A stretch of 54,878 nt of DNA from Candidatus Levyibacteriota bacterium (GTDB lineage Bacteria; Patescibacteriota; Microgenomatia; Levybacterales; UBA12049), in assembly GCA_029260905.1 (NCBI GenBank), contig JAJDCH010000008.1, forward strand, positions 1 to 54,878, read 5' to 3'. Position numbers and translations under genes: made by a program. Positions 5,079-50,411 of the stretch are shown piece by piece (the first letter of the stretch is position 1; every line of letters begins with the position of its first letter). The notes beneath the pieces were generated by a model. That model did no database searches. It was given only the letters and a program-made list of their open reading frames with translations, and was not told where the DNA came from.

Positions 5079-6019
5079 AAATTACATTTATTGCAACTGT
5101 TTTCAATGAAGAAGAAAATATTGATAATTTTTTAAAGTCTTTATCATTGCAAACAAAAAAGCCGGATCAAATTGTAATAGTTGATGGGGGAAGTATAGAT
5201 ACTACAGTATTTAAGATTATGAATTATGAATCAAGAATTGATACAAATTTTAATTTTTATATAAAAAAAGGCAATAGATCAGTTGGAAGAAATGAAGCGA
5301 TAAGAAATGCAACTGGAGACATAATTGTTTGTTCAGATTCAGGAAATATTTTGGATAAGAATTGGATTAAAAATATATACAAACCTTTTCTAAATAAAAA
5401 CATTGATGTTGTTGCTGGATATTATAAAGCCAGAACTGAAAATGTATTTCAAGAATGCCTGATTCCATATGTTTTTGTAATGCCAGATAAGATAAATTCT
5501 CGAGATTTTCTTCCTGCAACAAGATCTGTTGCATTTAAAAAATCTGTTTGGAAAAAAGCTGGTGGATTCAACGAACGTTTGTCGCATAATGAAGATTATG
5601 TCTTTGCAAATAAACTCAAAAAGATAAACGCAAAGATATTTTTTGAAAAAAACGCTTTTGTTTATTGGATACCAAGAAAAAACTTAAAAGAAGCCTATTT
5701 TATGTTCTATAGATTTGCACAGGGAGATATTGAATCAGGAATATTAAGACCAAAAGTGGTTTTTATTTTTGTTCGTTATTTAGTTGCTTTTTGGATGTTG
5801 ATTTGTTTCCTGATATTTAGATCATCCTTTATACTTAGTGTCTTATGCCTTATAATAGTAATGTATATATTTTGGTCAATAAAAAAGAATTATAAATATG
5901 TTAAAAAATGGGAGGCTCTATTTATCTTACCTGGACTACAGATCGTATCTGATTTTGCAGTGATGATAGGAAGTCTGATTGGTTCAATCAAATTATGGGA
6001 TATGCAAAAGAAGCAATAA
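5075..6019 (+). CDS. GT2 glycosyltransferase with C-terminal TM helices
   Basis: TVFNEE, VDGGS, GRNEAI, SDSG, NEDY. ATG 5075 overlaps the upstream TGA (ATGA). Confidence 0.9.
   Translation: MKITFIATVFNEEENIDNFLKSLSLQTKKPDQIVIVDGGSIDTTVFKIMNYESRIDTNFNFYIKKGNRSVGRNEAIRNATGDIIVCSDSGNILDKNWIKNIYKPFLNKNIDVVAGYYKARTENVFQECLIPYVFVMPDKINSRDFLPATRSVAFKKSVWKKAGGFNERLSHNEDYVFANKLKKINAKIFFEKNAFVYWIPRKNLKEAYFMFYRFAQGDIESGILRPKVVFIFVRYLVAFWMLICFLIFRSSFILSVLCLIIVMYIFWSIKKNYKYVKKWEALFILPGLQIVSDFAVMIGSLIGSIKLWDMQKKQ
5213..5240 (+). repeat. Degenerate 7-nt tandem repeat inside a GT2 gene
   Basis: AAGATTA TGAATTA TGAATCA AGAATTG, encoding KIMNYESRI. Confidence 0.65.
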
Positions 6020-7212: not shown

Positions 7213-7958
7213 TTAGCGCAATAATACTTACAAAAAATGAAGAAATAAATATTGCTGATTGCATTAAATCAGTCAAGTGGTGCGATGAAATAATTGTTGT
7301 AGATGATAATTCAATTGATAAGACAGTAGACATAGCTGCAAAGAGGGGCGCAGTTGTTTATAGACATGATATGAATATGGATTTTGCAAGACAAAGAAAT
7401 TATGGATTAAGCAAAGCAAAAGGAGAATGGGTGCTTTTTGTTGATGCTGACGAGCGGGTATCCCCATCTCTTTGGTATGAAATAATGCAGTATACCAATG
7501 CATCTTTTGGAAACTATAAAGGATTTTACATAAAAAGACAGGATTATATTTGGGGCAAGAAGTTAAAGTTTGGAGAAGCAGGTGCTGCAAAATTTATACG
7601 ACTTGCTAAAAAAGATGCAGGTAGGTGGAGTGGTAAGGTTCATGAAGTTTGGAATATAGAAGGATTGAAAAAAACACTTGAAAAGGAACTTGCTCATTAT
7701 CCTCATCAAGCAATTGCAGATTTTTTGAAAGATATTAATTTTTATTCAACTTTGCGTGCAAAGGAACTATATGATAAAAATATCAAAGTATCATGGCTTT
7801 CAATAATTATTTTTCCAATAGCCAAATTTTTTCGAAATTATTTTTTAAAACTAGGTTTTCTTGATGGAATTCCTGGTATTATTACAGCTCTTATGATGGC
7901 ATTTCATTCGTTTTTGGTTAGAGGCAAGCTTTGGATCATGAAAAATAAAAATAGATAA
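7209..7958 (+). CDS. GT2 glycosyltransferase (WaaE/KdtX-like)
   Basis: ILTKNEE, FARQRN, WVLFVDADE, GKVHE, LKLGFLDG. Confidence 0.85.
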   Translation: MISAIILTKNEEINIADCIKSVKWCDEIIVVDDNSIDKTVDIAAKRGAVVYRHDMNMDFARQRNYGLSKAKGEWVLFVDADERVSPSLWYEIMQYTNASFGNYKGFYIKRQDYIWGKKLKFGEAGAAKFIRLAKKDAGRWSGKVHEVWNIEGLKKTLEKELAHYPHQAIADFLKDINFYSTLRAKELYDKNIKVSWLSIIIFPIAKFFRNYFLKLGFLDGIPGIITALMMAFHSFLVRGKLWIMKNKNR

Positions 7959-9157
7959 TGAAACTTCTTAAATTACTGATTTTTATAAATCTTTTATTTT
8001 TTGTAACTGGTGAGATGTTTAGATTTAATATCGCTAATGATATTTTTTTAAAACCACTTGATGCATCTGTTCTTTTGACATTTTTTGTCTGGATTTTTCT
8101 TTTAATATTAAATAAAATAAAACAACCGAATATAAAATGGCAATATTTATTTTTTCCAACAACGATATTGATAAGTATAGTTGTAAATTCTTATTGGCTT
8201 ATGCCGATAGAGATTTTTACAGCAACACTTTATGCCTTAAGATTTGTAAGTTTCTTTAGTTTATTTTTTATAGTTGCTAGTTTTGATAAAGATTTTAAGC
8301 AGAAACTTTTAAATATTTTATTTATATTAGGAATTGTCATTTTGATAATTAGTTATTTGCAATACTTCCTATATTCTTCTCTTAGGAATGTTTTCTATCT
8401 AGGATTTGATGAACACTACTTTAGGATATTTTCAGTGTTTTTGGATCCGAATTTTGCAGGTGTTTTTTTTGTGTTATTTTTTCTTTTCATTTTTACAAAA
8501 TTAGTAATTGCTTTAAAAAAAGAAAAATTAAAACAGAAAATATTTTTATTTATTCTTTTTTTAATATCAATAACAACTGTTTTTTTGACTTTCTCAAGAA
8601 CAGCGCTTTTGTCTTTGATTATTTCATTTTCTATTTATCTAGTTTTTTTAAAAAAAAAGAAATTTATTCTACACTTAATAAGTGCATTAGCCATGTTTAT
8701 TTTAATAACTTATCCCTTTTATCAAATAGAAAGTTTAAATCTTTTTAGAACAACTTCAGGAATTGGAAGAATAGAAAGCTACACTACTTCCCTAAAGGTT
8801 GCTAGCGTAAATCCAATATTTGGAACAGGATTTGGTGCATATAGATATGCAAGAAAATTTCATGAAAAAGAAATAATAGATGAAAATGATTTTCCAGAAA
8901 ATTCTAAGTCAGGTGTAGAGAATAGCTTTTTATATGTGTTTGCAACAACTGGACTTGTGGGGCTTGGAGCTTTTTTTATTTTGTGGAAACAAATCTTAAA
9001 TAGTGCTTTTAAAACTCTTAAAAAAAATAATGATCAATATCAGATATTAGTTATTTCATCTATTGCCTGTTTTTTTGTAAGTGCACTTTTTATAAATAGT
9101 TTATTTTTCCCTGCTCTAATGCTTTGGATTTTTATAATCCTTGCTATTCTCCTTTAA
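7958..9157 (+). CDS. O-antigen ligase/polymerase (Wzy_C) family membrane protein
   Basis: Polytopic; FLDPNFAG, LTFSRTA, PIFGTGFG, ENSFL...TGLVG. Confidence 0.8.
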   Translation: MKLLKLLIFINLLFFVTGEMFRFNIANDIFLKPLDASVLLTFFVWIFLLILNKIKQPNIKWQYLFFPTTILISIVVNSYWLMPIEIFTATLYALRFVSFFSLFFIVASFDKDFKQKLLNILFILGIVILIISYLQYFLYSSLRNVFYLGFDEHYFRIFSVFLDPNFAGVFFVLFFLFIFTKLVIALKKEKLKQKIFLFILFLISITTVFLTFSRTALLSLIISFSIYLVFLKKKKFILHLISALAMFILITYPFYQIESLNLFRTTSGIGRIESYTTSLKVASVNPIFGTGFGAYRYARKFHEKEIIDENDFPENSKSGVENSFLYVFATTGLVGLGAFFILWKQILNSAFKTLKKNNDQYQILVISSIACFFVSALFINSLFFPALMLWIFIILAILL

Positions 9158-32769: not shown

Positions 32770-33780
32770 ATGAATAATGTAAAAAAACAAATCAAGATAA
32801 TAGCAACAATTGGTCCTGCGACTCATTCTCCTGATCGTATACTTGATTTGGCAAAAGCTGGTGTAAATATATTTAGGATTAATTTGTCACATGCTACCGA
32901 TCAGGAGATTTCAGAACGTTTTAAATGGATAAAATTAGCAGAAGATATTTTGGGGGTAAAACTTGAGATACTTGGTGATTTGCCTGGACCTAAAATAAGA
33001 ATTAATGATGTTGCAAAAAATGTGATCCTTGAAAAAGGACAAAAATATTATATCTTGAAAAATAAGAAAAATGGTGATGTGTATGGATGTGGCCTTAACT
33101 ACCCAAAAATATTAGATGTGCTTACTGAGGGAGCAAAGATATTTATAGATGATGGACAGATTCAACTGATTGTAGACAAAAAAACATCAGAAGGTCTAGA
33201 GACAACCGTTGTAGTGGGTGGTCATTTGACTTCAAGGAAAGGTTTTTTGGCTGAAGGGATATCAATCAGTCTTGGCAGTGTTTCAACAAGAGACAAAAGG
33301 GGAATAAAGCAGATGATCAGAGAAAAACCAGATTATCTAGCAATCTCTTTTGTTGAAACGAAAAAAGACATAGAAGAAATAAAAAAACTGTTACCCAAAA
33401 ATTTCAATGCTAAATTGATTGCAAAGATCGAGACATGTAATGGCGTAGTTAACGCTGAAGATATTTTAAGTGTCTCAAGTGGATTGATGGTAGCAAGGGG
33501 AGATTTGGGACTTGCTATGCCTATTTTTAAAGTGCCTAGAATTCAGAAAGACTTGATAAGGCTTTGCAATCAAGAGAAAAAATTTGTAATAACTGCAACT
33601 CATATGCTTGAGTCAATGATTAATAAGCCTCTTCCCACAAGAGCAGAGGTTAGTGATGTAGCAAATGCTATTTGGGATGGAACTGATGCTGTGATGCTTT
33701 CTGGGGAGTCAGCTATTGGTAAATATCCGATTGAAGCAGTTACGGTTTTGCAGGAAATGATTGATGAGATTAGTTTTTAA
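32770..33780 (+). CDS. pyk: Pyruvate kinase lacking the C-terminal domain
   Basis: [51 protein letters not shown]; ends at 336 aa. Confidence 0.95.
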
Positions 33781-37650: not shown

Positions 37651-38277
37651 TTAAACTTTATTCTCGTTCTTGTTTCTTATTTCTTTTGAAGCTATATTAC
37701 CATCCTTTTCTATCTCATAGACATAAATTTCACCAACTGCGATTTCAAGATGGGGGATGTCCTCATCTGATATATTTTCAAGATATTTGATCAATGCTCT
37801 TAGACTATTTCCATGAGCCGTGATAATAATATTTTTGCCATCTTTCAAAAGTGGCATGATCTCAGATTCAAAATAAGGAATAGCTCTTTGATAAACATCT
37901 TTTAAAGATTCACCGTTTGGCAATTGATAATCCCAGCTACGTCTTATTTTCTGAAACATCTCCTCTCCCACTTCTTTTTTTACTTCCCATTTATTTTTTC
38001 CAGTATAATCACCGTAATCTCGTTCATTTAAAGCTTTATTTTCAGTTGTTGGTACGTTTTTCTCAGTGCTTCCTTTTTGAATTTCATCCCATGTTTCCTT
38101 AGCTCTTTTTAGGGTCGATGTGAACGCGAGATCCATATGGATATCTTTTAGTTTTTCTCCAGCTTCAAAAGCAACTTCTCGACCTTTATCATCAAGTGAA
38201 ACATCAGTCCAGCCGGTCCAGAGACCTTTGGCATTCCAAACAGATTCACCATGTCTAACAAGTATAAGTTTTGCCAT
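37651..38277 (-). CDS. gpmA: 2,3-bisphosphoglycerate-dependent phosphoglycerate mutase
   Basis: LVRHGES, TGWTD, LNERDYG, RRSWD, AHGNSLRAL. Confidence 0.97.
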   Translation of the reverse strand: MAKLILVRHGESVWNAKGLWTGWTDVSLDDKGREVAFEAGEKLKDIHMDLAFTSTLKRAKETWDEIQKGSTEKNVPTTENKALNERDYGDYTGKNKWEVKKEVGEEMFQKIRRSWDYQLPNGESLKDVYQRAIPYFESEIMPLLKDGKNIIITAHGNSLRALIKYLENISDEDIPHLEIAVGEIYVYEIEKDGNIASKEIRNKNENKV

Positions 38278-38331: not shown

Positions 38332-39372
38332 TTAGAAAAATCCGCCAGAGTGGACATGAGCTTTTTTTCCATTTATGGTTATTATTTTTCCCTCTTTTAA
38401 AATTCTGGTTGCATTTTTTGCATTAATAATTCCAGAAATGCCATGATGAAAGTCAAAAACACCAGTGTGGATTTTTGAATCCTCTTCTATGATAAATCCT
38501 GAGATTTTTTGCCTAATATTTTTAGGTAGTAAATCAAGACTTTTTGCTATCAAAATATTTTCCTTTTTTATATCTTTTAAATCATTGAAATTTTTTATAA
38601 TTTTTGCAATGCCTGTTGTTATTCTATTTGAAATAGTTTTTCCTGTAATAAGTATAGTTTTTCGTTTTATTTGCATTTTAGTTTTAGGGGTCGGAATGTG
38701 TGGCTTGATTGATAGGATATAAAAAATTCCTTCTTTAATACCCCAAGTAACTTGATGCGGAATTGGAAAAAGTATGTTTAGTTTTTTTACTATTTTTTCC
38801 AAATGTGGATGATATTTATTGTTAGCTGAATTTTTTGTACCAGTTAAGATTTTGCCAAAAACATCAGGCAATATTTCTTTACGAACAGATATAGCAGGAG
38901 TGATTTTTTGATAGTCTATTTTGTTTTTGAATCTATAATAAAGCATCCCTGGTTCAAAAAAATCAATTATTGATTGTTTTATTTTTTCGGCAAGATCATC
39001 TCCTTTTTTGAGATAAACTTTTTTATTATTAAAATCTAGATACATATTTGTACCTAGTTTTTTTTGTAGGTTTTTTGAATCATTAGTAAAGCCATCAGGA
39101 AGCATGGTCTTAAGGATTTCATTTTTGATATGAGTTGAAGCTTGAGCAAGAGATGCTTGATTTTCAAAATGAATTGTTGATATCAAGCCATTTATCCGAG
39201 AGCTAAGAAAACTTGTGTTGATTAATTTCTGATACACCTCAGGTGACAACATATACACATCTGGAATCGAAAAACTTGCTTTTTTTAATTTAAAAAGTTT
39301 TTTTAATTCTTCGTTCAGATTTTTTGAGTACTTTTCTTCAGTCTTTTCTATGTTCAGAAAAAAATTATTCAT
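38332..39372 (-). CDS. Degenerate PEP-synthase-like protein (eroded nucleotide-binding domain plus phospho-His swivel domain)
   Basis: N-terminus aligns by eye with PpsA (FSIPDVYML..., LAQASTHIKNEIL, VTWG..FYILSIKP). C-terminus resembles the PEP-utiliser mobile domain (GKTIS..TTG.AKII, ENILIA, NATRILKEGKIITING). Confidence 0.7.
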   Translation of the reverse strand: MNNFFLNIEKTEEKYSKNLNEELKKLFKLKKASFSIPDVYMLSPEVYQKLINTSFLSSRINGLISTIHFENQASLAQASTHIKNEILKTMLPDGFTNDSKNLQKKLGTNMYLDFNNKKVYLKKGDDLAEKIKQSIIDFFEPGMLYYRFKNKIDYQKITPAISVRKEILPDVFGKILTGTKNSANNKYHPHLEKIVKKLNILFPIPHQVTWGIKEGIFYILSIKPHIPTPKTKMQIKRKTILITGKTISNRITTGIAKIIKNFNDLKDIKKENILIAKSLDLLPKNIRQKISGFIIEEDSKIHTGVFDFHHGISGIINAKNATRILKEGKIITINGKKAHVHSGGFF

Positions 39373-39418
39373 CTAGATTTATTGTTGCTTATTGAGAAAG
39401 AAATTTCAAGCACTTGTA

Positions 39419-39448
39419 TTGACAATCAAGGAAAAATTAGTCTATAGT
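39419..39448 (+). promoter_or_regulatory. Promoter of the Hpt-receiver-pilus operon
   Basis: TTGACA-18 nt-TATAGT. Confidence 0.6.
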
Positions 39449-39470
39449 CAAATAAGTTAACAATAGTTAT

Positions 39471-39866
39471 ATGCCAGTTTCAGACGACGATAAAAGTAAG
39501 TTCAAAGATTTGTATCTTCAAACAGCAAAAGCTTATATCGATGATATTCAGAGAAATTTATTAATTTTAAGGTCTGACTTTTCGAATAAAGAATCAATAG
39601 GTGTGGTACATATGGCAGCCCATTCTTTGACAAGTCAAAGTATATTGATGGGCTTTGGTCATGTTGCTGCATACTCAAGACTTATTGAGATGATTTTTAG
39701 ACAAAAAATAAATGACAATAACAGAATTCTTGATTTTGAATTGGTTCAAGAGATAGACAAAGGGCTTGTTGAGCTGTATAAATCTCTTGATGCGATAAAA
39801 GACAATGGGGTTGAAGTTGATATGTCTCCTTTTATAAAGTTGTTAGAATCAAGAGTTCATAATTAG
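39471..39866 (+). CDS. Stand-alone Hpt (CheA P1-like) phosphotransfer protein
   Basis: Helical 131-aa protein with AAHSLTSQS..MGF matching the Hpt H-box AHSLKG.S..MG. Confidence 0.8.
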   Translation: MPVSDDDKSKFKDLYLQTAKAYIDDIQRNLLILRSDFSNKESIGVVHMAAHSLTSQSILMGFGHVAAYSRLIEMIFRQKINDNNRILDFELVQEIDKGLVELYKSLDAIKDNGVEVDMSPFIKLLESRVHN

Positions 39867-39868
39867 TT

Positions 39869-40240
39869 ATGTATGTACTATTAATAGAAGACGACAAATT
39901 TTTTCAAGAGTTTTATTCTTTTAAATTAAAAGAAAAAGGAGTAGAAGTTGACATAGCATCAGATGGTGAGGAAGGCTTGTTAAAGATTGCGCAAAGAATT
40001 CCAGATGTCATTCTTCTTGATCTTATCATGCCTAAAAAGGATGGGTTTGAGGTGCTACAGGAGCTTGTGAATAGAAATCTTATCGCTCAGATACCAGTTC
40101 TTGTTTTTTCAACTCTTGGTCAAAAGTCTGATGTCGAAAAAGCAATAGGACTTGGAGCTAAGGGATATGTAAATAAAAGCTTTTTTGACTTTGACAAACT
40201 CCTCACATCCATCATACAATTAGGTCAGAAACAAAACTAA
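39869..40240 (+). CDS. Single-domain response regulator (CheY-like receiver)
   Basis: IEDD acidic pocket, phospho-Asp in LLDLIMP, FST and conserved Lys (VNKS); no output domain. Confidence 0.93.
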   Translation: MYVLLIEDDKFFQEFYSFKLKEKGVEVDIASDGEEGLLKIAQRIPDVILLDLIMPKKDGFEVLQELVNRNLIAQIPVLVFSTLGQKSDVEKAIGLGAKGYVNKSFFDFDKLLTSIIQLGQKQN

Positions 40241-40249
40241 TCTGCCCAT

Positions 40250-41932
40250 ATGCTCATAACAGATGAAAAGCTCAAAGAGCTATTGCTTAATGTCAAGGTG
40301 TTGGATGAAAAAAGTCTTTTAGATGTAGAGACTTATTCTAAAAACACGGATACTTCGCTTTATGAATCGTTGATAGAAAAAGATATTATCACTGATGAAA
40401 ATTTGGGAATTCTTATTGCAGATTCTCTTAAAATTCCATTTATCGTTCTCTCCAAGATTTCAATTCCTGATAATGTTTTTAAAATAATTCCTGAAAGAAT
40501 TGCTCGAAAGTATAAGGCAATACCATTTGAGCGCGATAAGAATGGAGTTAAAGTGGCAATGGCTGATGTTAGCAATAAGATGATTCAGGAAATGATTGCT
40601 AAAAAAACAGGGCAAAAGGTCTATGCATATCTTTCAACAGAGCGTGACATCTATAGCAAGTTGTATATTTTTAAAAAAGACCTTCAGAAATCTTTTGACA
40701 GTCTAGTTTCTGAGCAGTTAAAAAACGCCGGCAAAGGAGCATCAGATGCGCCCATTTCAAAGATAGTTAGTCTTATTATTCAGTATGGTTATCAGGATCA
40801 GGCATCCGATATTCATATTGAACCAGAAGAGAAAGGAACACTTGTTCGTTTCCGTGTTGATGGTATTCTTCATGATGTTTTACATCTCCCCAAAAATCTT
40901 CATGAGCAGATCTCAACTCGTATAAAAGTCTTATCAAATTTAAGAACCGATGAGCATATGTCACCTCAGGATGGAAAATTAAGGGTTGAGTTGGAGGAGG
41001 AAAATCTTGACATCAGGGTGTCTATCTTGCCGATTGTGTATGGTGAGAAACTGGTTATGAGGCTTCTTGCATCGCATTTCAGGCAGTTTTCACTGGTTGA
41101 TCTTGGTATGCGAGAGGAGGATCTGGAAAAAGTAAATAAAGGTTTTGCCAAATCTTTTGGGATGGTTCTTTCTACTGGTCCGACTGGTTCTGGAAAAACA
41201 ACATCAATTTATTCAATTCTGAAGATAATAAATACTCGCGAAAAAAACATCACCACCATTGAAGATCCGGTTGAGTATAGGATAAAAGGCGTTAATCAAA
41301 TTCAAACAAATGTCAAGGCTGATCTTACTTTTGCACAGGGTCTAAGATCTATTCTTAGACAAGACCCAAACGTTATTTTTGTTGGTGAAATAAGAGATAG
41401 TGAGACTGCGGGAATTGCTGTAAACGCAGCACTCACCGGTCATTTAGTCTTGTCAACTCTTCATACAAATGATGCTGCTGGCGCGCTTCCGAGACTTACA
41501 GACATGAATGTTGAGCCGTTTCTGGTTGCCTCAACAGTAAATGTTATTGTTGCCCAGCGTCTTGTCAGAAAAATTTGTGAGATGTGTAAATCATCAATTG
41601 AGGTAACAGAAAATGATCTTGATAAGAATTTGCCACCAGAAGTTGTAAAAAAATATTTTGGTGAGAAAAAGGATATGCGGATTTATGTAGGAAAAGGATG
41701 TGAGGTTTGTCACGAGACAGGATATTCTGGAAGAATTGGTGTTTTTGAGGTTCTGTCTGTCAGCCCTGCCATTAAGGCGTTAATTAGCGCAAAAAAAGAT
41801 TCCAATGTCATCCTTGAGCAGGCAATAGAAGAAGGGATGACAACAATGCTGGATGATGGAATTATTAAAGTTAAGAAGGGCCTAACAAGTATTGAGGAAG
41901 TGTTAAGGGTTACAAAAGTAGAATCGCTTTGA
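40250..41932 (+). CDS. pilB: Type IV pilus assembly ATPase (PilB/GspE)
   Basis: ASDIHIEP, GPTGSGKTT, EDPVEY, LRQDP, GEIRD, STLHTN, tetra-Cys motif. Confidence 0.96.
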   Translation: MLITDEKLKELLLNVKVLDEKSLLDVETYSKNTDTSLYESLIEKDIITDENLGILIADSLKIPFIVLSKISIPDNVFKIIPERIARKYKAIPFERDKNGVKVAMADVSNKMIQEMIAKKTGQKVYAYLSTERDIYSKLYIFKKDLQKSFDSLVSEQLKNAGKGASDAPISKIVSLIIQYGYQDQASDIHIEPEEKGTLVRFRVDGILHDVLHLPKNLHEQISTRIKVLSNLRTDEHMSPQDGKLRVELEEENLDIRVSILPIVYGEKLVMRLLASHFRQFSLVDLGMREEDLEKVNKGFAKSFGMVLSTGPTGSGKTTSIYSILKIINTREKNITTIEDPVEYRIKGVNQIQTNVKADLTFAQGLRSILRQDPNVIFVGEIRDSETAGIAVNAALTGHLVLSTLHTNDAAGALPRLTDMNVEPFLVASTVNVIVAQRLVRKICEMCKSSIEVTENDLDKNLPPEVVKKYFGEKKDMRIYVGKGCEVCHETGYSGRIGVFEVLSVSPAIKALISAKKDSNVILEQAIEEGMTTMLDDGIIKVKKGLTSIEEVLRVTKVESL

Positions 41933-41934
41933 TT

Positions 41935-42984
41935 ATGAGTACAAAAAGAATTAGTATTTCAAATAAAGAAAAAATAGGATTGATCAGTAATCTGCATACA
42001 ATGCTTTCAGCTGGGATTCCGATTCTTGAAACAGTTGATTCATTACTCGAGGATGTAAAAGGAAACATGAGGAAGCTTCTTCTTGTTCTAAGAGAGGATT
42101 TGATACAGGGAAAAAAGGTTTCATTTGCTTTTGCAAAATTTCCAAAGATCTTTGATAAGGTTACAGTTAATATCATTAAGGCCTCAGAAGAGGCTGGCAA
42201 TCTTGATACTACATTAAATGATATAAAAGAAAATATTAAAAAAGATATTGAATTTAATGACAAAATTAAAAGTGCTCTAATCTATCCTGTTTTTATTATG
42301 TTTGTTTTTGTAGCAGTGCTTTTGATGATTTTGGTTGTGGTTGTTCCGAAAATTTCCAATGTTTTTTTAAGACTAAATGTAGAGCTTCCTCTCCCAACGC
42401 GTATTATGATTAGTATGTCTGATGCACTAATTAACAACACTATTCCAGTTGTTCTTGGAATAGGGTTTGCTATTTTCATAATTATGTTTCTGTTTAAGAA
42501 GAATAAAAGAGCATTTATATCAATCCTTGTTTCTCTTCCAGCTATTTCAACGCTTGCGCAAAAGGTAGATTTGACGCGTTTTTCAAGAGGGCTTTATCTT
42601 CTTTTAAGTGCGGGAATTCCTATTACTTCGGCGCTTGAGCTTGCGGAGGAGATTGTCAGTAAAAGAGAAATGCAAAGAGCAATAAAGCAGACAAAAGAAA
42701 TGGTCTTTTCTGGAAAAAAGCTGTCTGATGGGTTAAAGCTCAACAAGGCAATTATTCCATCAATTATGATAAAGATAGTTGAGGCTGGCGAGAAAACAGG
42801 ATCTTTAGATAGATCTATGCAAGACGTTTCTGAATATCTTGACTATGAGGTGTCAAGTTCTCTAAAGACTCTTACGGCACTTATTGAGCCGCTTCTTTTA
42901 GTGATTGTGGGTGTGATGGTTGGCGGGATGATGATGGCTATCATCAGTCCTATCTATAGCATTGTTGGACAGATTGGAGGGTAA
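41935..42984 (+). CDS. pilC: Type IV pilus platform protein (PilC/GspF)
   Basis: Two GspF repeats (LSAGIPI; EEAGNLD / GEKTGSLD), ALIYP, LIEP. Confidence 0.95.
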   Translation: MSTKRISISNKEKIGLISNLHTMLSAGIPILETVDSLLEDVKGNMRKLLLVLREDLIQGKKVSFAFAKFPKIFDKVTVNIIKASEEAGNLDTTLNDIKENIKKDIEFNDKIKSALIYPVFIMFVFVAVLLMILVVVVPKISNVFLRLNVELPLPTRIMISMSDALINNTIPVVLGIGFAIFIIMFLFKKNKRAFISILVSLPAISTLAQKVDLTRFSRGLYLLLSAGIPITSALELAEEIVSKREMQRAIKQTKEMVFSGKKLSDGLKLNKAIIPSIMIKIVEAGEKTGSLDRSMQDVSEYLDYEVSSSLKTLTALIEPLLLVIVGVMVGGMMMAIISPIYSIVGQIGG

Positions 42985-42988
42985 AATT

Positions 42989-43016
42989 AGCTTATGGCTT
43001 ATGGTAAATGGCGTAT
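42989..43016 (+). repeat. 7-nt repeat spanning the start of a minor pilin
   Basis: AGCTTAT GGCTTAT GGTAAAT GGCGTAT; supplies the ATG and MAYGKWRI leader. Confidence 0.7.
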
Positions 43017-43467
43017 AGTAGCGAAAGGATTTACTTTAATAGAATTGGTTCTTGTGATGGGAATTTTTACAGCGATTGTAAGTCTTTCAACAATATCATT
43101 ATCTAGGCTTCAGTCAAGTTCCAGACTTGATGCTGCTGTCAATAGTCTTAATGCCGATTTAAGAGAGCAGCAGCTGAAAGCAATGTCAGGTGATAATGAC
43201 GGGCAAGGTGGTTCGTCTAATTATAATTACGGAGTTCATTTTGATGCTGAATCATATACATTTTTTAGAGAAAATTACGGAGCTGGTAATATTTCTTATA
43301 CTCTTAAAGAGCATCTAGAATTTGTACCGCCTTTTACTGAGTTTGTCTTTCAAAAAGGAAGTGGTGAGATTGGAGCTCCTGTGACAGTTACTATCAATGA
43401 TACAGCAATAGGCAGACAAAAAATAATTGAGATAAATAAACTTGGAGTAGTAACAGATGTTAACTAA
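42994..43467 (+). CDS. Minor type IV pilin (FimT/GspH-like)
   Basis: Class III signal KG|FTLIELVLVM. Confidence 0.85.
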   Translation: MAYGKWRIVAKGFTLIELVLVMGIFTAIVSLSTISLSRLQSSSRLDAAVNSLNADLREQQLKAMSGDNDGQGGSSNYNYGVHFDAESYTFFRENYGAGNISYTLKEHLEFVPPFTEFVFQKGSGEIGAPVTVTINDTAIGRQKIIEINKLGVVTDVN

Positions 43468-45475
43468 GATGAAGATTTTTAATTACAAAGGACAGACATT
43501 GATAGAGTTAATTTTAGTTATGGGTATAGCTGCACTTGTCTTGCCTGCTATTTTGACAGGGCTTGTAGTTTCGCGTGAGGCAAAACCTCAACAGGAAAAA
43601 AGACTTGCGGCAACAGCCTATCTGAAAGAAGTGGAATCAGCAATTAAAAATATTAGAAACTCTAGCTGGTCAGCATTTTCAACAAATGGTACGTTTCACA
43701 CTGAGATTAGTGGAACTTCCTGGTCTCTTGATTCCGGATCATCAACGAATGCTGACGGGATTACGCAGGAAGTGGTAGTTAGTGATGTTTATAGAGATGA
43801 AAGTGGAGCGATTGTGGAAACAGGAGGAGTTGTTGATCCATTGACGAAAAAAGTTGATATTATTATTTCTTGGACTGAGCCAAGAGATTCTTCAATTACA
43901 TCAACATTATTTATAGTTAATACCAATAATGAAACTGTAACACAAACGACTGAAGCTGATTTTTTGGCAGGAACACCCACTACAACAGAGGTAACAAATA
44001 ATGATGATGGAGAGGTTGCTCTGGAGCTTTCATTTGGTCAGGCAGACTGGTGCAGTCCGCAGGATTCTGAAGTCGAGAATTTGACTCTTCCTAAGAAAGG
44101 AAACTCAATAAGAGTGCCTGGGGTTGGATCTGCATATGTAGCAACAGGTGATGGTACAGAGGGTGAGTCTTTTGTTAATGTCGGAATTTCCTATCCTCCT
44201 CCTCCAGGCGCGCCGGATGCAGCTATTGTTGCAACATATAGTGGAAATTATCAAACAAATGCCATTTACAGTACAGGTAATTATGCTTATCTAGCAATAA
44301 ATGGAACAACCAAACAAGTTAGAATATTAAACATTTCAAGTACACCCTATACAGAGGTTGGTACGATCACTCTTCCATCAGGAACTAATGCAAACGGTGT
44401 TTTTGTTGATGGCAATAATGCATATGTGACAAGTAGTAATAAAATATATAAGGTAGATATAACCAATAAAAATGGTTCTCATTCACCAAATAGATCAAGG
44501 TCAATGAGTCTTGACTGGTTTGAAACAGGTACGCCAATTGCTCATCAGGTAGCAGTTGTCGAAAATCGTGTTTTTGTTACAGTTCAGGGCGCGCTTGCTG
44601 GTGTTCAGATTTTTGATAAAAGTAATTTAGTTCTCAGAGGTGTCGGACAGCTAACATTTAACCAAACACCCCGTGGCCTTTTTGTAAACAGTACTGGAAC
44701 ACGCGCATATGTTTCTTTCAGCGGTGGACCAGGCTGGTTATCAAAAGGATTTTTTATTATTAATACATATGAACCAGATGCTTTTTGGTTTGTTATTTAT
44801 TTTCATCCCAAAGTTGGTACATACAGTACAGGTACAGTGGAGCCTCGTAGTATGGCAATAACGCCTGATACTGGAAACAGAGCATTGATTGGTGGTTTAA
44901 ACGGAACTTATGAATATCAGGTTGTCAATATCTCAAATGAGTCAAATCCAATATTTTGCGGAGGATTAGATATACCTGCTGGAGTAACAGGAGTAAGCGG
45001 AGCGCTTGATCAATACGGGAATGTTTTTGCTTTTCTTTTGACAGGTGATATTGTAGGAGGTGGAAGTGATCAGCTCAAGATAATACAAGGTGGAGCTGGC
45101 GGTGGAGGTGGTGGCTATGCTTCATCAGGTACATTTGAGTCATCATCGATAAATATTGGAGGATCTGCTGTTTTTAATAGATTTGCAGCAACCGTTACAG
45201 AGCCAGTAAATACTTCTATACAAATGCAGGTCGGTGTTGCAGCGCCTACTTCTGGATCGTGTAGTACTGCTCAGTTTACGTTTGTTGGACCAGATGGAAA
45301 TACTGGGTCTTATTACACGCCAGTCGGAAATACAATCTCTGGTTCAATTCCAATTGGAAGCATTAGTCCTTTTTATGAAAACCCAGAGCAGTGTTTCAGA
45401 TATAAAGCATATTATGAAAATAATACAACCTCGTCGCCAATTCTTGAGGATGTGATAGTTAATTATTCGCCATGA
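43457..45475 (+). CDS. Large pilin-like protein with a beta-propeller-like domain (candidate adhesin)
   Basis: KG|QTLIEL signal, repeated GNYAYLA / GNNAYV / ENRVFV / GTRAYV blades, Gly linker GGAGGGGGG. Confidence 0.75.
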   Translation: MLTKMKIFNYKGQTLIELILVMGIAALVLPAILTGLVVSREAKPQQEKRLAATAYLKEVESAIKNIRNSSWSAFSTNGTFHTEISGTSWSLDSGSSTNADGITQEVVVSDVYRDESGAIVETGGVVDPLTKKVDIIISWTEPRDSSITSTLFIVNTNNETVTQTTEADFLAGTPTTTEVTNNDDGEVALELSFGQADWCSPQDSEVENLTLPKKGNSIRVPGVGSAYVATGDGTEGESFVNVGISYPPPPGAPDAAIVATYSGNYQTNAIYSTGNYAYLAINGTTKQVRILNISSTPYTEVGTITLPSGTNANGVFVDGNNAYVTSSNKIYKVDITNKNGSHSPNRSRSMSLDWFETGTPIAHQVAVVENRVFVTVQGALAGVQIFDKSNLVLRGVGQLTFNQTPRGLFVNSTGTRAYVSFSGGPGWLSKGFFIINTYEPDAFWFVIYFHPKVGTYSTGTVEPRSMAITPDTGNRALIGGLNGTYEYQVVNISNESNPIFCGGLDIPAGVTGVSGALDQYGNVFAFLLTGDIVGGGSDQLKIIQGGAGGGGGGYASSGTFESSSINIGGSAVFNRFAATVTEPVNTSIQMQVGVAAPTSGSCSTAQFTFVGPDGNTGSYYTPVGNTISGSIPIGSISPFYENPEQCFRYKAYYENNTTSSPILEDVIVNYSP

Positions 45476-46452
45476 ACCAAAAAATAAACAAACAGTATTT
45501 GATTAATTTTTTTAAAAAAATTGTAGAAGATAAGTTTATTCTGGGAATTGTCATGCTTGCAATTTTAAGCATCATAGTTAGTGTTTCACTTTTAATAGGT
45601 GGGGAAAATAATTTTTCAAAACGTACAGGAATTCCAAATGTTTCAAATCATGGATCAGGAGAAGATGGTAAGACTGGAGAGGAGGAATCATCAGAAAAAG
45701 GATTTAATTTCTTTGGACTTCTTTCTGAAAAAGATCAAGGGAAAGATCAGTCTTCAGAAAATAGTGCTCCAAGAAGTCTTAAAGGAGTTACTGTTCCAAA
45801 TGGAAATCCTAACATCAAGACTCCGCCTGCAATTAAAAAAGTGAATGCTGATGGATCATCAGTTGCACAGACTTTAAATCAAACAGGTTCAACAAATACA
45901 ATCGAGGGAACAATTGATCCTGATCCAGATGGAGGACTTCAAGAAGGGGTTGATAGTGATTCGGGAGGGGATAGTATTGCAATTAGTTTTCAAAATTCGG
46001 ATGGTTCAATTACAGAATATGTTCCGCCAGGCACACCTGAAGATGAGATAAGATGGGGAAGGTATACAAACACTACAAGTGGTTACGCTCTAAATTTTCC
46101 TGTAAATTGGCAATTTACATATTCAGTAGCTGAAACAGGTGATGAACTTTTAATACTTTTTCCGCCAAACGTTGATCCTGATGATCCAGAAAGTGAAAAT
46201 ATTGTTTTCGGCTTTAATAGTAGTAATTTTAATCCAGTAAACACGATACTTAGGGATGCTTATACAACCACGATTATTGTTGATGGACAGACTGGGAATT
46301 TGTACACAAAAGGACCTCTTGGTCCTAGTTATATTGCATCAATTCTAAACACTAATACTGGATTGTTTGGATTGATGGCAAGTAAAAGCGATGAGCTTTT
46401 TGCATATGTTTATTATTTCATGATTCATTCACTAACATTTAATGTTGAATAA
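45472..46452 (+). CDS. Membrane-anchored extracellular protein, possible PsbP-like C-domain
   Basis: One N-terminal TM, low-complexity linker, YTN...GYALNFPVNW motif; overlaps flanking pilin genes. Confidence 0.55.
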   Translation: MNQKINKQYLINFFKKIVEDKFILGIVMLAILSIIVSVSLLIGGENNFSKRTGIPNVSNHGSGEDGKTGEEESSEKGFNFFGLLSEKDQGKDQSSENSAPRSLKGVTVPNGNPNIKTPPAIKKVNADGSSVAQTLNQTGSTNTIEGTIDPDPDGGLQEGVDSDSGGDSIAISFQNSDGSITEYVPPGTPEDEIRWGRYTNTTSGYALNFPVNWQFTYSVAETGDELLILFPPNVDPDDPESENIVFGFNSSNFNPVNTILRDAYTTTIIVDGQTGNLYTKGPLGPSYIASILNTNTGLFGLMASKSDELFAYVYYFMIHSLTFNVE

Positions 46453-46978
46453 AATTAAACCAAGAATAAATGTTCAAAATTCAAAAACTCAAATGAAGGG
46501 TTTTACTCTTATTGAGTTGACTATGTCTATGGGGATTCTTGCAGTTTTGCTAGTAGCATTCACTGCTATATTCGGATCGGTGGTTGACGTAAATCTTGAG
46601 TCAAGTTCTGCATCTGCTATAGACCAGGATGGGAGATTTGTAATTTCCCGTCTTGTTTATGACACACAACGTGCTGATGAAATAGTGCAACCATCCGTTC
46701 CGGCTACGACATCGTCAAATACTTTTACAGTTTTAATATCTGGAGAGCAGTTCACATATGGCATGGATCTAAATGAAAATATTGCTCTTACCAATAATTC
46801 GGGAACCAATACGCTTAATAGCATGAACACAAAAGTTGAGAATTTGACTTTTCAGAGAATAGGCATAGGTGACAATACTGATACGATTCAGGTGAAATTT
46901 AATCTAGTAAGCAGGATTCAAAGGACAGCAGGAATTGTTGATTCAAAGGATTTTCAAACAACACTTAGTATAAGATGA
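46442..46978 (+). CDS. Minor type IV pilin (PilW/GspJ-like)
   Basis: KG|FTLIELTMSM class III signal. Confidence 0.85.
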   Translation: MLNKIKPRINVQNSKTQMKGFTLIELTMSMGILAVLLVAFTAIFGSVVDVNLESSSASAIDQDGRFVISRLVYDTQRADEIVQPSVPATTSSNTFTVLISGEQFTYGMDLNENIALTNNSGTNTLNSMNTKVENLTFQRIGIGDNTDTIQVKFNLVSRIQRTAGIVDSKDFQTTLSIR

Positions 46979-47358
46979 AAGGACAGGCGCTAGTTACACT
47001 ATTATTTTTTACGATTTTTGCTATAACTGTTACTACAGCAGCAGTTGTGGTGGTGGTTGCCAATTCCAAATCAGGAGTAAAATTTCAGGAGGGTTCTGTG
47101 GCATTTCAGGTCGCGCAAAGTGGTGCAGATAATGCGGTAATAAGACTTCTCCGCGATCCTGGCTATACTGGTGAAACTGATTTGCAGGTGGGAAAGGGGC
47201 TTGCTGATATTTCAGTAATTGGATCAGGAATAATTGCTGATCCGTATATTATAATATCAACAGGCAAGGTTGGAGACTTTGTTAAAACAATTGAGGTTAC
47301 TGTAACTTATGAAGAAAATGAGATGGAAGTTATTTCACAAAAAGAAGTTTTTAATTAA
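46975..47358 (+). CDS. PilX/GspK-like minor pilin
   Basis: KG|QALVTLL lacking Glu5, with AF..AQSG...A...L typical of PilX N-termini. Confidence 0.75.
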   Translation: MKGQALVTLLFFTIFAITVTTAAVVVVVANSKSGVKFQEGSVAFQVAQSGADNAVIRLLRDPGYTGETDLQVGKGLADISVIGSGIIADPYIIISTGKVGDFVKTIEVTVTYEENEMEVISQKEVFN

Positions 47359-47361
47359 TTT

Positions 47362-48138
47362 ATGAATACCCAGGGACAGGGAGTAGTGCTCCTTCAGAAA
47401 GACAAATTTCAAATTTTTATGTCGAATCAGCCAGGAATTCTGGAATTTTTGTTTGTTCCTGAAATTGTTTCGGATCTGGATATAATAGATAAAAATTTTT
47501 TAGAACAATTGATCAAGCTTTTTATAGACAGTAATAAGCTGACACCAGGCGCGCTTACATTTGTAATTGCTGAACAGGCATGTTTTATAAAAAATATTGT
47601 GCTTCCTCCGCCTCCAGCTGTTCATACAGAGCCAAATCAAGTAGTTAATTTTGATTTGGAGAAAGAAATAAATCAATTTCTTGAAAGAGTTCCGTTTGAT
47701 GAAGTAGCAAGTGTTAGATTTCAGCTTGAAAATGGTGCTAGGATTTGTGCCACAAATAAAATTTTCTTCGAAAGTTTTGTTAAGGCTTTTGAAAAATATG
47801 GATTTATGACAAATATTGTTGTGCCATCGTTGGCGCTTGGATCAAGTCCAATTCTTAAGCCAATTCTTGATCAACAAATGGCAAACTATATTCTTTCAGC
47901 AGATCTGGGAGCATTGAGAAGACATAGTTTTATGATTGATCAAAAAATAGAACAGCAAGCTTCTGTTTTAGATGAGAAAAAGTCAGGGAATTCGTCATCA
48001 GGGAACTATGAAATATCTGATGCTCCATCTGGTCCTGAGAAAAAAACTAATAAAAAAAGAGTTTTTTTATTAGTAAGTGTATTTGTAATTTTGATAGCTA
48101 TTTTGGTGTTTATGATTTTTAATCAAGAACCAGTCTGA
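47362..48138 (+). CDS. Pilus-operon protein with C-terminal TM (possibly PilM/GspL-related)
   Basis: Position in operon; soluble domain followed by a basic stretch and one TM. Family assignment is weak. Confidence 0.4.
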   Translation: MNTQGQGVVLLQKDKFQIFMSNQPGILEFLFVPEIVSDLDIIDKNFLEQLIKLFIDSNKLTPGALTFVIAEQACFIKNIVLPPPPAVHTEPNQVVNFDLEKEINQFLERVPFDEVASVRFQLENGARICATNKIFFESFVKAFEKYGFMTNIVVPSLALGSSPILKPILDQQMANYILSADLGALRRHSFMIDQKIEQQASVLDEKKSGNSSSGNYEISDAPSGPEKKTNKKRVFLLVSVFVILIAILVFMIFNQEPV

Positions 48139-48254: not shown

Positions 48255-48743
48255 ATGACTGCCCAAATTTCAAAACTTAAAAAAGGTTTCACGCTTATAG
48301 AGCTTCTAGTTGTTATCGGAATTTTAGCTATTCTTCTAGCAATCACTCTTATCGCCATCAACCCCGCAAGACAATTCGCCCAAGCAAATAATACTCAAAG
48401 AAATAGCGATGTTAATGCTATATTAAATGCGATTGGACAATATGCTGCTGAAAACTCAGGTCAACTTCCAGGTGATGATCCTGTTGCTCCAGCAAATAAT
48501 GAAATTACCACTACTGTACAAAATATCTCTGAAGCAGGAGCAGATATTTGTGGAGATCTAGTTCCGGATTACATTGCACAACTTCCAGCTGATCCATCTC
48601 TGGGAGGTCCAATAGCTGCAACATGTCCTGCATTATATGACACAGAGTATCAGGTGGTAAAAAGTGCTTCGGATAGCAGAGTAACTGTCTCAGTATTACC
48701 AGCAAACGAAGAGCTTGATGTATCTATATCAGTAACAAGATAG
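48255..48743 (+). CDS. Type IV pilin (probable major pilin)
   Basis: KG|FTLIELLVVI, INPARQF, two Cys; has its own promoter and terminator. Confidence 0.92.
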   Translation: MTAQISKLKKGFTLIELLVVIGILAILLAITLIAINPARQFAQANNTQRNSDVNAILNAIGQYAAENSGQLPGDDPVAPANNEITTTVQNISEAGADICGDLVPDYIAQLPADPSLGGPIAATCPALYDTEYQVVKSASDSRVTVSVLPANEELDVSISVTR

Positions 48744-48769
48744 GTCACTAATATAGAAAATGAATATAT

Positions 48770-48793
48770 AAACTACCGAAAGGTAGTTTTTTT
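48770..48793 (+). terminator. Intrinsic terminator after the first pilin
   Basis: AAACTACC-GAAA-GGTAGTTT with GNRA loop and T run. Confidence 0.85.
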
Positions 48794-49033
48794 GTAGGTA
48801 TATATTTATAAATATGAAGAATCAATAATTAGAATTGTATTCCTAACTGGATACCGGGGATGCCGCATGTTGCAAACTTCTTTCTTTGCATGATATATAA
48901 AAAAATATAAGAAGGAAAGAGTAGATAAAGTTTATAGATAAGATAAGGAGCGAAAAGAGATGGAAAAGTATTTCTCAAACTTATAACAGAGAGGGGCAAA
49001 TTGAAATTTGCTACTTATTAAAAACAAGGTAGT

Positions 49034-49291
49034 TTATTTTTTCTTCTTTTTCGCTTTTGAAGATTTAGAGGTTGCCTTTTGGCTAGAGTTTCCAACTAGA
49101 TAGAGAAGACCGATGAGAAATCCTCCTCCGACTATTGCAAACAAAGTATAGTTTCTTAAAGCCTCTATATCATCAAAGAAATATTCTTGATTGGTTATAA
49201 ATTTATTAAAAATAACATAAGCAATAAGAAGGATAAGTAAAGCAATTATTGCCTTTGCTGTACTGTGTGTTTCGTGAGTTTTTAAAGCCAT
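49034..49291 (-). CDS. Small two-TM membrane protein with basic tail
   Basis: Two hydrophobic helices, KAKKKK end; TATAAT 5 nt before ATG, TTGACA further upstream. Confidence 0.75.
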   Translation of the reverse strand: MALKTHETHSTAKAIIALLILLIAYVIFNKFITNQEYFFDDIEALRNYTLFAIVGGGFLIGLLYLVGNSSQKATSKSSKAKKKKK

Positions 49292-49359
49292 TATCTATTA
49301 TATGAATAAATAAGTAGTCTCTGTCAAGCATTAAAAATAACACGAAAAGATTAAGTTGC

Positions 49360-49388
49360 TTGACGCTGCAAAATTAATCATACATAAT
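49360..49388 (+). promoter_or_regulatory. Promoter of the second pilin
   Basis: TTGACG-17 nt-CATAAT. Confidence 0.65.
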
Positions 49389-49405
49389 TAATTAGGACTT
49401 GAAAT

Positions 49406-49876
49406 ATGACTGCCCAAATTTCAAAACTTAAAAAAGGTTTCACGCTTATAGAGCTTCTTGTTGTTATTGGAATTCTAGCAATTCTACTTGCCGTTACGTT
49501 AATTGCTATTAACCCCGCAAGGCAATTTGAGCAAGCTAACGATGTGCAAAGAAGGTCTGATGTTAATGTTATTTTAAATGCTATTAATCAATATTCAATA
49601 GATCAAAGCGAGCTTCCTGGAGACGGTTTGGGTTCTCCAGATCTTATAACAACATCAGACAGAAATATTTCAAGCTCAGAGGTGAATATCTGTGCTCTTC
49701 TTAGGCCATTGTATGTTGCAGCTCTGCCCACTGATCCTGATTCTTCGCATGTAGGAAGTTCTCTTTCTCCTTGTCCGGGTAGCTATGATACAGAATATGC
49801 TGTCAGAAAAACTCCTGATGGTAGAATTGTGGTTTCAGCTCCAAATGCTAGCACTACTGTCGAGGTAACAAGATAG
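49406..49876 (+). CDS. Type IV pilin paralogue 2
   Basis: Same leader as 48255..48743, FTLIEL, INPARQF, ends VTR. Confidence 0.92.
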   Translation: MTAQISKLKKGFTLIELLVVIGILAILLAVTLIAINPARQFEQANDVQRRSDVNVILNAINQYSIDQSELPGDGLGSPDLITTSDRNISSSEVNICALLRPLYVAALPTDPDSSHVGSSLSPCPGSYDTEYAVRKTPDGRIVVSAPNASTTVEVTR

Positions 49877-49883
49877 TAAAGAA

Positions 49884-50411
49884 ATGAATACTAATTACCA
49901 CGAATTTTCAAGCAAAGGATTTACCCTCATAGAGTTAATGGTTGTAATTGGTATTTTTTCTGTTCTTCTTGCTATCACGCTTGTAGCTCTAAACCCCGCA
50001 AGGCAGTTTGCACAGGCAAATAATACAAAAAGGGGTAGCGACACACAAGCAATCTTAAACGCGATAGGACAATACTCAGTCCAAAATAGCGGTAATTTAC
50101 CTGAAGGAAGCGGAACAAATGGTGGCATGATTCTTCTTTCAGATTGTACAGTGGGATCTCCATGTCTCATTTCAAACGATGCTGCAGTTTTGACCCCCAA
50201 AATAGACCTTTGCGGAGTGCTTATCACAGATTATCTCGCTGAGTTGCCGATTGATCCTGTTTCTGGCGAGGGAACACCGACAGGCTCCTGTATAACTGAT
50301 TACAATACGGGATATTTTGTTTATCAAGCTGCATCAAGCAATAGAATTACGGTTTTAGCTCCAGATACAGAATTACAACCAGAAGTGAGCGTAATTTCCG
50401 TTACAAGATAG
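49884..50411 (+). CDS. Type IV pilin paralogue 3
   Basis: KG|FTLIELMVVI, LNPARQF, four Cys, ends VTR. Confidence 0.92.
   Translation: MNTNYHEFSSKGFTLIELMVVIGIFSVLLAITLVALNPARQFAQANNTKRGSDTQAILNAIGQYSVQNSGNLPEGSGTNGGMILLSDCTVGSPCLISNDAAVLTPKIDLCGVLITDYLAELPIDPVSGEGTPTGSCITDYNTGYFVYQAASSNRITVLAPDTELQPEVSVISVTR

Follow-up and report, generated by a model that had tools for sequence, protein, structure and literature searches.

The stretch of DNA analysed here (the window, 54,878 nt) is a whole contig (C15) of the 954-kb, 17-contig genome of a Candidatus Levyibacteriota bacterium, which is 94.9% complete. It contains a type IV pilus operon headed by two small genes, one for a histidine phosphotransfer (Hpt) protein and one for a CheY-like receiver, which are followed by pilB, pilC and nine further co-directional genes, mostly pilin-like (Table 1). 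The coordinates of the open reading frames (ORFs) bear out the arrangement described in the original prediction: Hpt, intact receiver, pilB and pilC lie in this order, with 2 nt between the Hpt gene and the receiver gene, 9 nt between the receiver gene and pilB, and a spacer of 98 bp separating hpt from a divergent gene for a PpsA-like protein. The Pfam scan, which covered 61 non-overlapping ORFs of the window, found among them no histidine kinase, CheW or chemoreceptor, as had been stated. The subject of this text is the Hpt-receiver pair, the route by which it could be charged with phosphate and the pilus motor on which it could act.

The product of the first gene scores 22.8 bits against the Pfam Hpt family (PF01627), below the gathering cut-off of 24.6 bits, and its identity is therefore secured by the matches of its family, by a profile match to CheA P1 and by its predicted fold. 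An exhaustive homologue search with the window protein retrieved 354 representative clusters at E 0.001 or better, mostly stand-alone proteins of about 130 aa and a few long multi-Hpt proteins, and 90 members drawn from these clusters were aligned. Pfam Hpt is matched by 89 of the 90 (E 0.01 or better), and the family profile matches the P1 domain of Thermotoga CheA at E 7e-20 with the histidines aligned. His51, which aligns with the CheA histidine, is the sole invariant residue of the family (90/90), while Glu73 (88/90) and Ser52 (85/90) are nearly invariant; position 55 is a serine in 68 of the 90 members and also in the window protein (Ser55). Glu73 corresponds to CheA Glu70, the phospho-accepting histidine (on the second helix) and the supporting glutamate of CheA being His48 and Glu70. 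Because His51 and Glu73 are kept in 90 and 88 of the 90 members, against a mean column identity of 35%, the catalytic site appears to be maintained.

The AlphaFold2 model of the Hpt has a predicted local distance difference test score (pLDDT) of 95.5 and five helices, forming a four-helix bundle plus a fifth. Its best Foldseek matches are P1 domains of CheA and CheA3, with template modelling (TM) scores of 0.74-0.84, among them that of Rhodobacter sphaeroides CheA3 solved with CheY6 (3kyi, TM 0.81), whereas comparison with other Hpt classes (HptB, Ypd1, plant AHP) gives TM scores of 0.3-0.56. Alignment and model together identify the protein as a free-standing phosphotransfer protein of the CheA-P1 type with a maintained active site and with His51 as predicted phospho-site. 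It is the single Hpt of the genome. Two small ORFs outside the window, C7:24132-24452 (106 aa) and C17:7277-7753 (158 aa), lie directly upstream of other single-domain receivers and were considered as additional Hpts; both were rejected, with no similarity to Hpt and no Pfam family, and the 158-aa ORF gives weak membrane-protein-like matches.

The receiver matches Response_reg (PF00072) with 81.5 bits. Asp8, Asp9, Asp51, Ser81 and Lys103 are invariant in 19 orthologues, the window protein having Ser81/Thr82, and with these residues intact the receiver is, as judged from its sequence, catalytically competent. Its closest solved relatives are RR468 and CheY proteins.

Conservation of the pair was followed in a sample of 61 related genomes, the own genome included, which are kin and so not independent samples; all counts are raw. 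Relatives of the Hpt were found in 20 of the 61 genomes by a single-sequence search and in 19 by a profile search, and of these 19, 18 carry a free or fused Hpt directly before the receiver and PilB, the remaining one (G026) having a true CheA. Around the non-self matches, 17 of 19 loci read Hpt, receiver, PilB, PilC, pilins; the two exceptions are the CheA of G026 and a weak match in G046 (E 0.0045), which we discarded as spurious, there being no module at the locus and the match being lost in the profile search. In further loci from other assemblies the Hpt-receiver-PilB order is kept in 12 of 12, at least one of which is the same contig as G002, and in three cases the Hpt and the receiver form a single fused protein (G048 and G006, by Pfam, and locus L069). 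These results confirm the Hpt-receiver pair as real and its association with pilB as conserved.

The PilB homologues of the sample fall into three score classes, that of the window protein (PilB-A) being defined by 787 bits or more. PilB-A is present in 26 of the 61 genomes, 18 of which have the Hpt-receiver head; all 18 heads stand on PilB-A operons, and the eight PilB-A operons that lack the Hpt also lack an upstream receiver. A second class, with about 42% identity, is found in nearly all genomes. In the own genome, C6:89067-93195 encodes a second-class PilB together with PilC and a PilT-like ATPase but neither a receiver nor an Hpt, and because of this second motor set the organism has two type IV pilus systems, only one of them with a signalling head. 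The third class (52-55% identity) occurs in five genomes, and in four of the five operons (L109-L112; G024, G029, G017, G026) the order is histidine kinase, receiver, in some cases another receiver, receiver and PilB, then PilC and a pilin, with no Hpt. The PilB-proximal receiver of these operons is the one most similar to that of the window, so that a receiver immediately ahead of PilB recurs in combination with differing input modules.

CheW, MCPsignal and H-kinase_dim gave no match in the own genome, at its 94.9% completeness, and therefore no CheA route is available there. CheW occurs in one of the 61 genomes, G026, which has a full MCP-CheW-CheY-CheB-CheA-CheC-CheD cluster and whose CheA P1 scores 142.8 bits against the free-Hpt profile; this cluster (L046, G026:C50) also includes a further receiver and lies a few kb from a PilT-like gene. 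The description of the module as kinase-less holds inside the window but not for the genome, which encodes six HisKA+HATPase_c kinases (a seventh HATPase_c match is GyrB) with MASE1-PAS, GAF, GAF-PAS, GAF and two simpler architectures. On the input side, where the original prediction had a metabolic donor, these six stand as candidate cognate kinases, several of them beside single-domain receivers. The genome has nine receivers, two of the OmpR type and seven single-domain; four of the latter adjoin kinases, and all receivers keep the acceptor residues. The parts of a multistep relay, namely a kinase, an intermediate receiver, an Hpt and a terminal receiver, are all present.

One of the six, a GAF-domain HisKA kinase (C7:17148-18626, minus strand), is encoded convergently to, and overlapping with, a single-domain receiver (C7:16817-17212). 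At a threshold of 232 bits, which was set after seeing the score gap (232.6 vs 185.5), orthologues of this kinase are found in 24 of the 61 genomes: 21 of the 26 with PilB-A and 3 of the 35 without. They occur in 16 of the 18 genomes with the Hpt-receiver head, and 15 of the 24 have the convergent receiver alongside the kinase. In G041, G053 and G048 the same pilus operon ends with the gene for this receiver, and the kinase converges on it; in G007 the kinase and receiver are within 2 kb upstream of the Hpt, and in G059 a receiver of the convergent type stands between the module receiver and PilB. All four relay parts are found at one pilus locus in G007, G048 and G053. The most reduced module genomes are those in which the set is barest: in G008, the smallest genome (88% complete), one HisKA kinase, two receivers and one Hpt were found, exactly the four proteins of the proposed relay, and G013 has two kinases and three receivers. 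In the own genome a split comEC lies just upstream of the convergent pair, encoded as two adjacent ORFs (C7:13874-15994) with a Competence domain (411 aa) and a metallo-beta-lactamase domain (287 aa).

On the output side, the receiver and PilB were co-folded. The pair scored 0.57 (runs 0.57, 0.55 and 0.59), the best of three controls scored 0.00, at least 95% of contacts are shared between the runs, and the partner has a pLDDT of 86. Of 157 solved complexes 116 score high enough to pass, as do 2 of 215 mismatched pairs; own alignments having been used, these counts apply roughly. Passing scores of 0.60 or below were obtained by only 18 of the 157 solved complexes and by both of the passing mismatches. 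The contact between receiver and PilB that had been predicted is therefore supported weakly: where a pairing is not likely beforehand, passes of this kind are wrong more often than right. Among the 120 PilB homologues listed with 981-2800 aa, a band that cannot hold fusions of about 700 aa, none has a PF00072 match. In many Patescibacteria there are PilB homologues that reach about 1000 aa, almost double the usual length (proteins P0155-P0273), some with MshEN matches.

Taking these data into consideration, and with middling confidence, we propose that the pilus system is controlled by a four-step His-Asp-His-Asp phosphorelay, of which the Hpt and its receiver form the final two steps. The soluble GAF-domain HisKA kinase would autophosphorylate and hand the phosphate to its convergently encoded single-domain receiver, which would pass it to His51 of the free Hpt; the Hpt would then charge Asp51 of the CheY-like receiver encoded before pilB, and the phosphorylated receiver would act directly on the PilB extension ATPase. 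The proposal is built on the domain identities, the catalytic residues, the conserved and in places fused pair, its restriction to one PilB class, and the co-occurrence and linkage of the kinase pair, all of which were observed. From these we infer each phosphotransfer step, the order of the steps, the binding of receiver to PilB and the sign of the effect on pilus assembly. Such a signalling chain is compact, conserved and probably complete, with one kinase, two receivers and one Hpt, ending beside PilB. The window is an ordinary member of the module, with the kinase half on another contig.

A fuller version of this proposal can be formulated, tentatively and with more doubt than confidence. 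A CheA-P1 domain may have lost its tie to the chemosensory kinase and been placed downstream of a classical GAF-HisKA kinase and a single-domain receiver, the full chemosensory cluster having survived in one related genus, that of G026. The resulting self-contained four-protein pathway would be built into the two ends of the pilus operon, would make up all of the two-component circuitry found in the most reduced genomes, and would gate the pilus motor via direct receiver-PilB contact. If this were true, ultra-small cells would spend their last signalling pathway on gating a pilus motor.

Several points speak against the four-step relay. In the own genome the kinase/receiver pair is on another contig, beside the split comEC and away from the pilus operon, and five other kinases with neighbouring receivers exist there as possible alternative donors. 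The kinase counts depend on a threshold chosen with the scores in view, and at 232 bits two of the 18 module genomes, G002 (94% complete) and G022 (72%), have no kinase match. The co-fold, as said, is a weak pass. At position 54, where 60 of the 90 Hpt family members have a lysine, the window protein has Thr54; this lysine, three residues after the histidine, is that of the H-x-x-K-G motif of the CheA-P1 class, and the window Hpt is without it. The kinase/receiver pair is also found without a free Hpt in eight genomes, five with PilB-A plus G012, G034 and G026, so that an Hpt is not indispensable to it and its convergent receiver may itself be an output. By analogy with RR468, the closest solved relative, which takes phosphate directly from a HisKA kinase, a direct route from kinase to the PilB-linked receiver is possible. 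Since the kinase pair occurs without the Hpt in those eight genomes, rivals that differ in wiring retain some probability. In one of them, which we consider unlikely, though less so than the other rivals, the GAF kinase or another HisKA kinase charges the PilB-linked receiver directly and the Hpt is a reversible shuttle between receivers, a buffer or sink that sets the response time, like two-CheY or PilG/PilH-type antagonistic pairs. Apart from the Hpt-free genomes, such branched wiring would agree with the third-class (PilB-C) operons, in which kinase, receivers and PilB follow each other with no Hpt, with the kinship of the receiver to RR468 and CheY, both charged directly by kinases, and with the lack of a CheC/CheX-type phosphatase gene in the annotated parts (the window and the C7, C14 and C17 regions), no whole-genome search for one having been made. 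However, the Hpt and the receiver are gained or lost together, 18 genomes having both and eight PilB-A operons neither, and their fusion in three genomes fits a dedicated donor-acceptor pair better than an accessory sink. In another wiring, several or other kinases (MASE1-PAS, GAF-PAS, GAF and others) feed the single Hpt through their neighbouring receivers, as several hybrid kinases feed HptB in Pseudomonas, in which case the main donor would be a kinase other than the C7 GAF kinase, or there would be more donors than that one. The genome itself offers the material, with six HisKA kinases, four of them adjoined by a single-domain receiver, seven such receivers, all with acceptor residues, and a single Hpt. 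Against this, the most reduced module genomes keep only the GAF kinase/receiver pair (one kinase and two receivers in G008; two and three in G013), and this pair alone was found joined to the pilus operon, so we consider a many-to-one arrangement distinctly improbable.

Two further rivals concern the Hpt and its donor rather than the wiring. The Hpt could be a relic that transfers no phosphate and serves as binding partner or scaffold of a receiver charged by acetyl phosphate or by a kinase. That a P1-type domain has no CheA kinase core here by which it could be charged, that the lysine after the histidine is not kept and that the protein evolves fast (37% identity within the genus) would all be expected of a relic; however, the near-complete retention of His51 and Glu73 in so variable a family is the pattern of a maintained catalytic site, and a relic is very improbable. 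The remaining rival is the one put forward in the original prediction, in which the swivel histidine of the PpsA-like neighbour, charged from phosphoenolpyruvate (PEP) or ATP, donates to the Hpt histidine and links PEP status to the pilus. The two genes are indeed divergent neighbours across a short spacer, 8 of the 18 module loci and 4 further ones have a ppsA-like gene in this divergent position, and one alignment puts His302 of the window protein at the catalytic column. However, no PEP-binding domain (PEP-utilizers_C, PF02896) was found in the protein or in the own genome (94.9% complete), nor was HPr (PF00381) found in this genome, and hence no domain was found that could load phosphate from PEP. 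His302 reaches the catalytic column via a one-residue gap, with a degenerate flanking motif, and in the model of the protein (pLDDT 82.3) it lies in a loop with pLDDT under 50, the usual following helix being absent. The GGRTSH motif is kept in 2 of 12 aligned ppsA-like neighbours (G013 and G008), the others having Glu, Thr, Leu, Ala, Asp or a gap at the histidine column, and G001, of the same genus, and G002 have a 95-residue N-terminal stub with no swivel next to an intact Hpt-receiver-PilB module. No ppsA-like gene was found in the examined stretch of 8 of the 18 module loci, including all four of the sister family, and where the adjacency exists it is part of a longer collinear block (uvrB, lexA, methylase, gpmA) common to close relatives. 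The linkage is therefore conserved between hpt, receiver and pilB and not on the ppsA side. Lack of conserved linkage and a cognate kinase elsewhere had been named in the original prediction as grounds for refuting it; the first applies, candidate kinases exist, and a PEP-driven input, attractive yet unsupported, is removed by the analysis as extremely improbable.

The PpsA-like gene itself had been described as encoding a phospho-His protein. A divergent PpsA-like gene is present, but its product is a 346-aa remnant with domain matches that are sub-threshold or weak: PPDK_N is matched with 31 bits over profile positions 11-95 of 328 only, the PEP-utilizers scores are 21.5 and 24.8 bits in two scans, and the NCBIfam PEP_synth score is 79 bits against a cut-off of 740. 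This remnant is the sole mobile-domain (swivel) match in the own genome. Full-length three-domain forms of about 750 aa stand beside the Hpt in some relatives (Pfam-confirmed in G005). From its residues and domain content, the window gene is best read as a decayed remnant and not a metabolic phosphate donor. A shortened form of 346-459 aa, with the N-terminal part and a swivel-like domain and no PEP-binding barrel, recurs at several loci (L044 8057-9247, L059 2724-3971, L062 2661-4040, L063 2752-3933 and window 38332-39372); it shows a conserved C-terminal end, and in several of its members Glu occupies the catalytic His column. As a group this form looks like a maintained pseudoenzyme rather than random decay. 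In L042 (5914-7257, G001, 447 aa) and L043 (6113-7444, G002, 443 aa) the 95-residue PPDK_N fragment is in frame with a complete GpmA; this is a true fusion, or else the ORF has been extended too far, through a dead ppsA stub.

Among the nearest known systems is Pil-Chp of Pseudomonas aeruginosa, in which, according to the sections consulted of a review (PMC11656802), CheA-type ChpA Hpts signal to CheY-like receivers that control type IV pilus extension and PilB placement; according to the same review, no direct contact of PilG or PilH with PilB had been reported. The window system resembles Pil-Chp (ChpA, PilG, PilH, PilJ, PilI) in its CheA-type Hpt, its CheY-like receiver and the proposed pilus control, but differs in that no CheA core, CheW or chemoreceptor was found, the Hpt is a separate 131-aa protein and the likely phosphate source is a GAF-HisKA kinase. 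Another likeness is offered by the Synechocystis tax3/pilG system, where, in the parts covered of PMC7656254, an HPt encoded by its own gene (Hik36/PilL-N) functions in pilus control and has a receiver protein as interaction partner. In both cases a CheA-type HPt is a gene of its own; in Synechocystis, however, the kinase core is Hik43/PilL-C, the receiver is Rre6/PilG, and the missing kinase half is encoded elsewhere in the genome, whereas the genome studied here, at 94.9% completeness, yielded no CheA-type dimerisation, kinase or CheW domain. Because CheA core, CheW and receptor were tested for and not found, the window system is not a member of either Pil-Chp or the Synechocystis split CheA. 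The P1 domain of Rhodobacter sphaeroides CheA3 is charged in trans by CheA4, apart from its kinase core, as stated in the excerpts used of PMC6829392. In contrast to the window Hpt, CheA3 has further domains, depends on a CheA kinase and has the flagellar motor as output.

Phosphorelays made of separate proteins are represented by KinA-Spo0F-Spo0B-Spo0A of Bacillus, ShkA-ShpA-TacA of Caulobacter and the HptB network of Pseudomonas. The proposed pathway shares with relays of the Spo0F/Spo0B type the succession of kinase, single-domain receiver, phosphotransfer protein and final receiver. In these relays, however, the final receivers are transcription factors or enzyme regulators, whereas the receiver described here has no output domain and is encoded before a motor ATPase, and the Hpt is of the CheA-P1 fold class and not of the Spo0B or ShpA/Ypd1 type. 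For the proposed last step there is a likeness to EmvR of Xanthomonas oryzae, a single-domain receiver that, according to the portion covered of PMC11973254, binds PilB and lowers its ATPase activity by about 40% in an Asp- and Thr-dependent manner; like EmvR, the window receiver would act on the pilus extension ATPase without a DNA-binding domain. The PATAN receivers PixG and PixE of Synechocystis and DrdR of X. campestris are likewise reported to bind PilB. Unlike the window receiver, EmvR, PixG/PixE and DrdR are not encoded beside pilB with an Hpt, and EmvR is charged by a classical kinase, ColS, with no Hpt step.

Type IV pili are thought to serve host finding, host holding and DNA uptake in the Candidate Phyla Radiation (CPR)/Patescibacteria. 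In the literature searched on their type IV pili, Hpt proteins, response regulators and CheY, supplements not included, we found no Hpt-receiver cassette at pilus operons, and nothing on the regulation of type IV pili in these bacteria. The term 'response regulator' has no occurrence in the covered part of a Saccharibacteria pilus preprint (PMC11623550), and the terms 'stand-alone', 'standalone' and 'lacking P1' have none in that of a survey of CheA architectures (PMC10542144). The persistence of a CheA P1 domain in genomes without CheA is relevant to the reuse of chemosensory parts in ordinary two-component pathways, and the system, consisting of four small soluble proteins and one ATPase, is directly testable in vitro.

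Coordinates of the operon and its flank are collected in Table 1. The promoter and terminator scan that yielded the match in the divergent spacer gave a region total of 62, against 52.2 (standard deviation 7.8) in shuffled sequences, which is not clearly above expectation. A second promoter match (40191-40220) lies inside the receiver gene and could give pilB its own start.

Table 1. Features of the pilus operon and the adjoining genes in the window.
Feature	Position	Strand	Basis or remark
gpmA, histidine phosphatase superfamily branch 1	37651..38277	-	Pfam His_Phos_1 match; housekeeping collinear block; judged outside the system
PpsA-like remnant, 346 aa; partial ATP-grasp region, swivel-like domain, no PEP-binding domain	38332..39372	-	Judged outside the system
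Sigma-70-like promoter match, TTGACA-18-TATAGT, 11/12	39419..39448	+	In the 98-bp spacer, 23 nt before the hpt start; consensus match alone
Hpt, free-standing, CheA-P1 type, 131 aa	39471..39866	+	Pfam, alignment, family profile, AlphaFold2 model
CheY-like single-domain receiver, 123 aa	39869..40240	+	Pfam Response_reg, invariant residues
PilB-type pilus extension ATPase, class PilB-A, N-terminal MshEN	40250..41932	+	T2SSE 419 bits plus MshEN
PilC platform protein, T2SSF, two repeats	41929..42984	+	Pfam
Six co-directional operon genes, kept with pilB-pilC in relatives	42994..48138	+	Pfam, loci of relatives
Pilin-like genes among the six, weak N_methyl matches	42994-43467, 43457-45475, 46442-46978	+	Pfam
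Three proteins among the six, no Pfam family	45472-46452, 46975-47358, 47362-48138	+	Pfam
Three more pilin genes, N-terminal methylation motifs	48255-48743, 49406-49876, 49884-50411 (span 48255..50411)	+	Pfam

Elsewhere in the window, the ORF at 32770-33780 encodes a pyruvate kinase of 336 aa with the barrel domain only, its C-terminal domain being unlisted at E 1e-5 or better. A 76-aa ORF at 3022-3252 matches the first 78 positions of Glycos_transf_2 only and probably represents part of a broken gene, bordering a glycosyltransferase/polysaccharide cluster (3310-9157).

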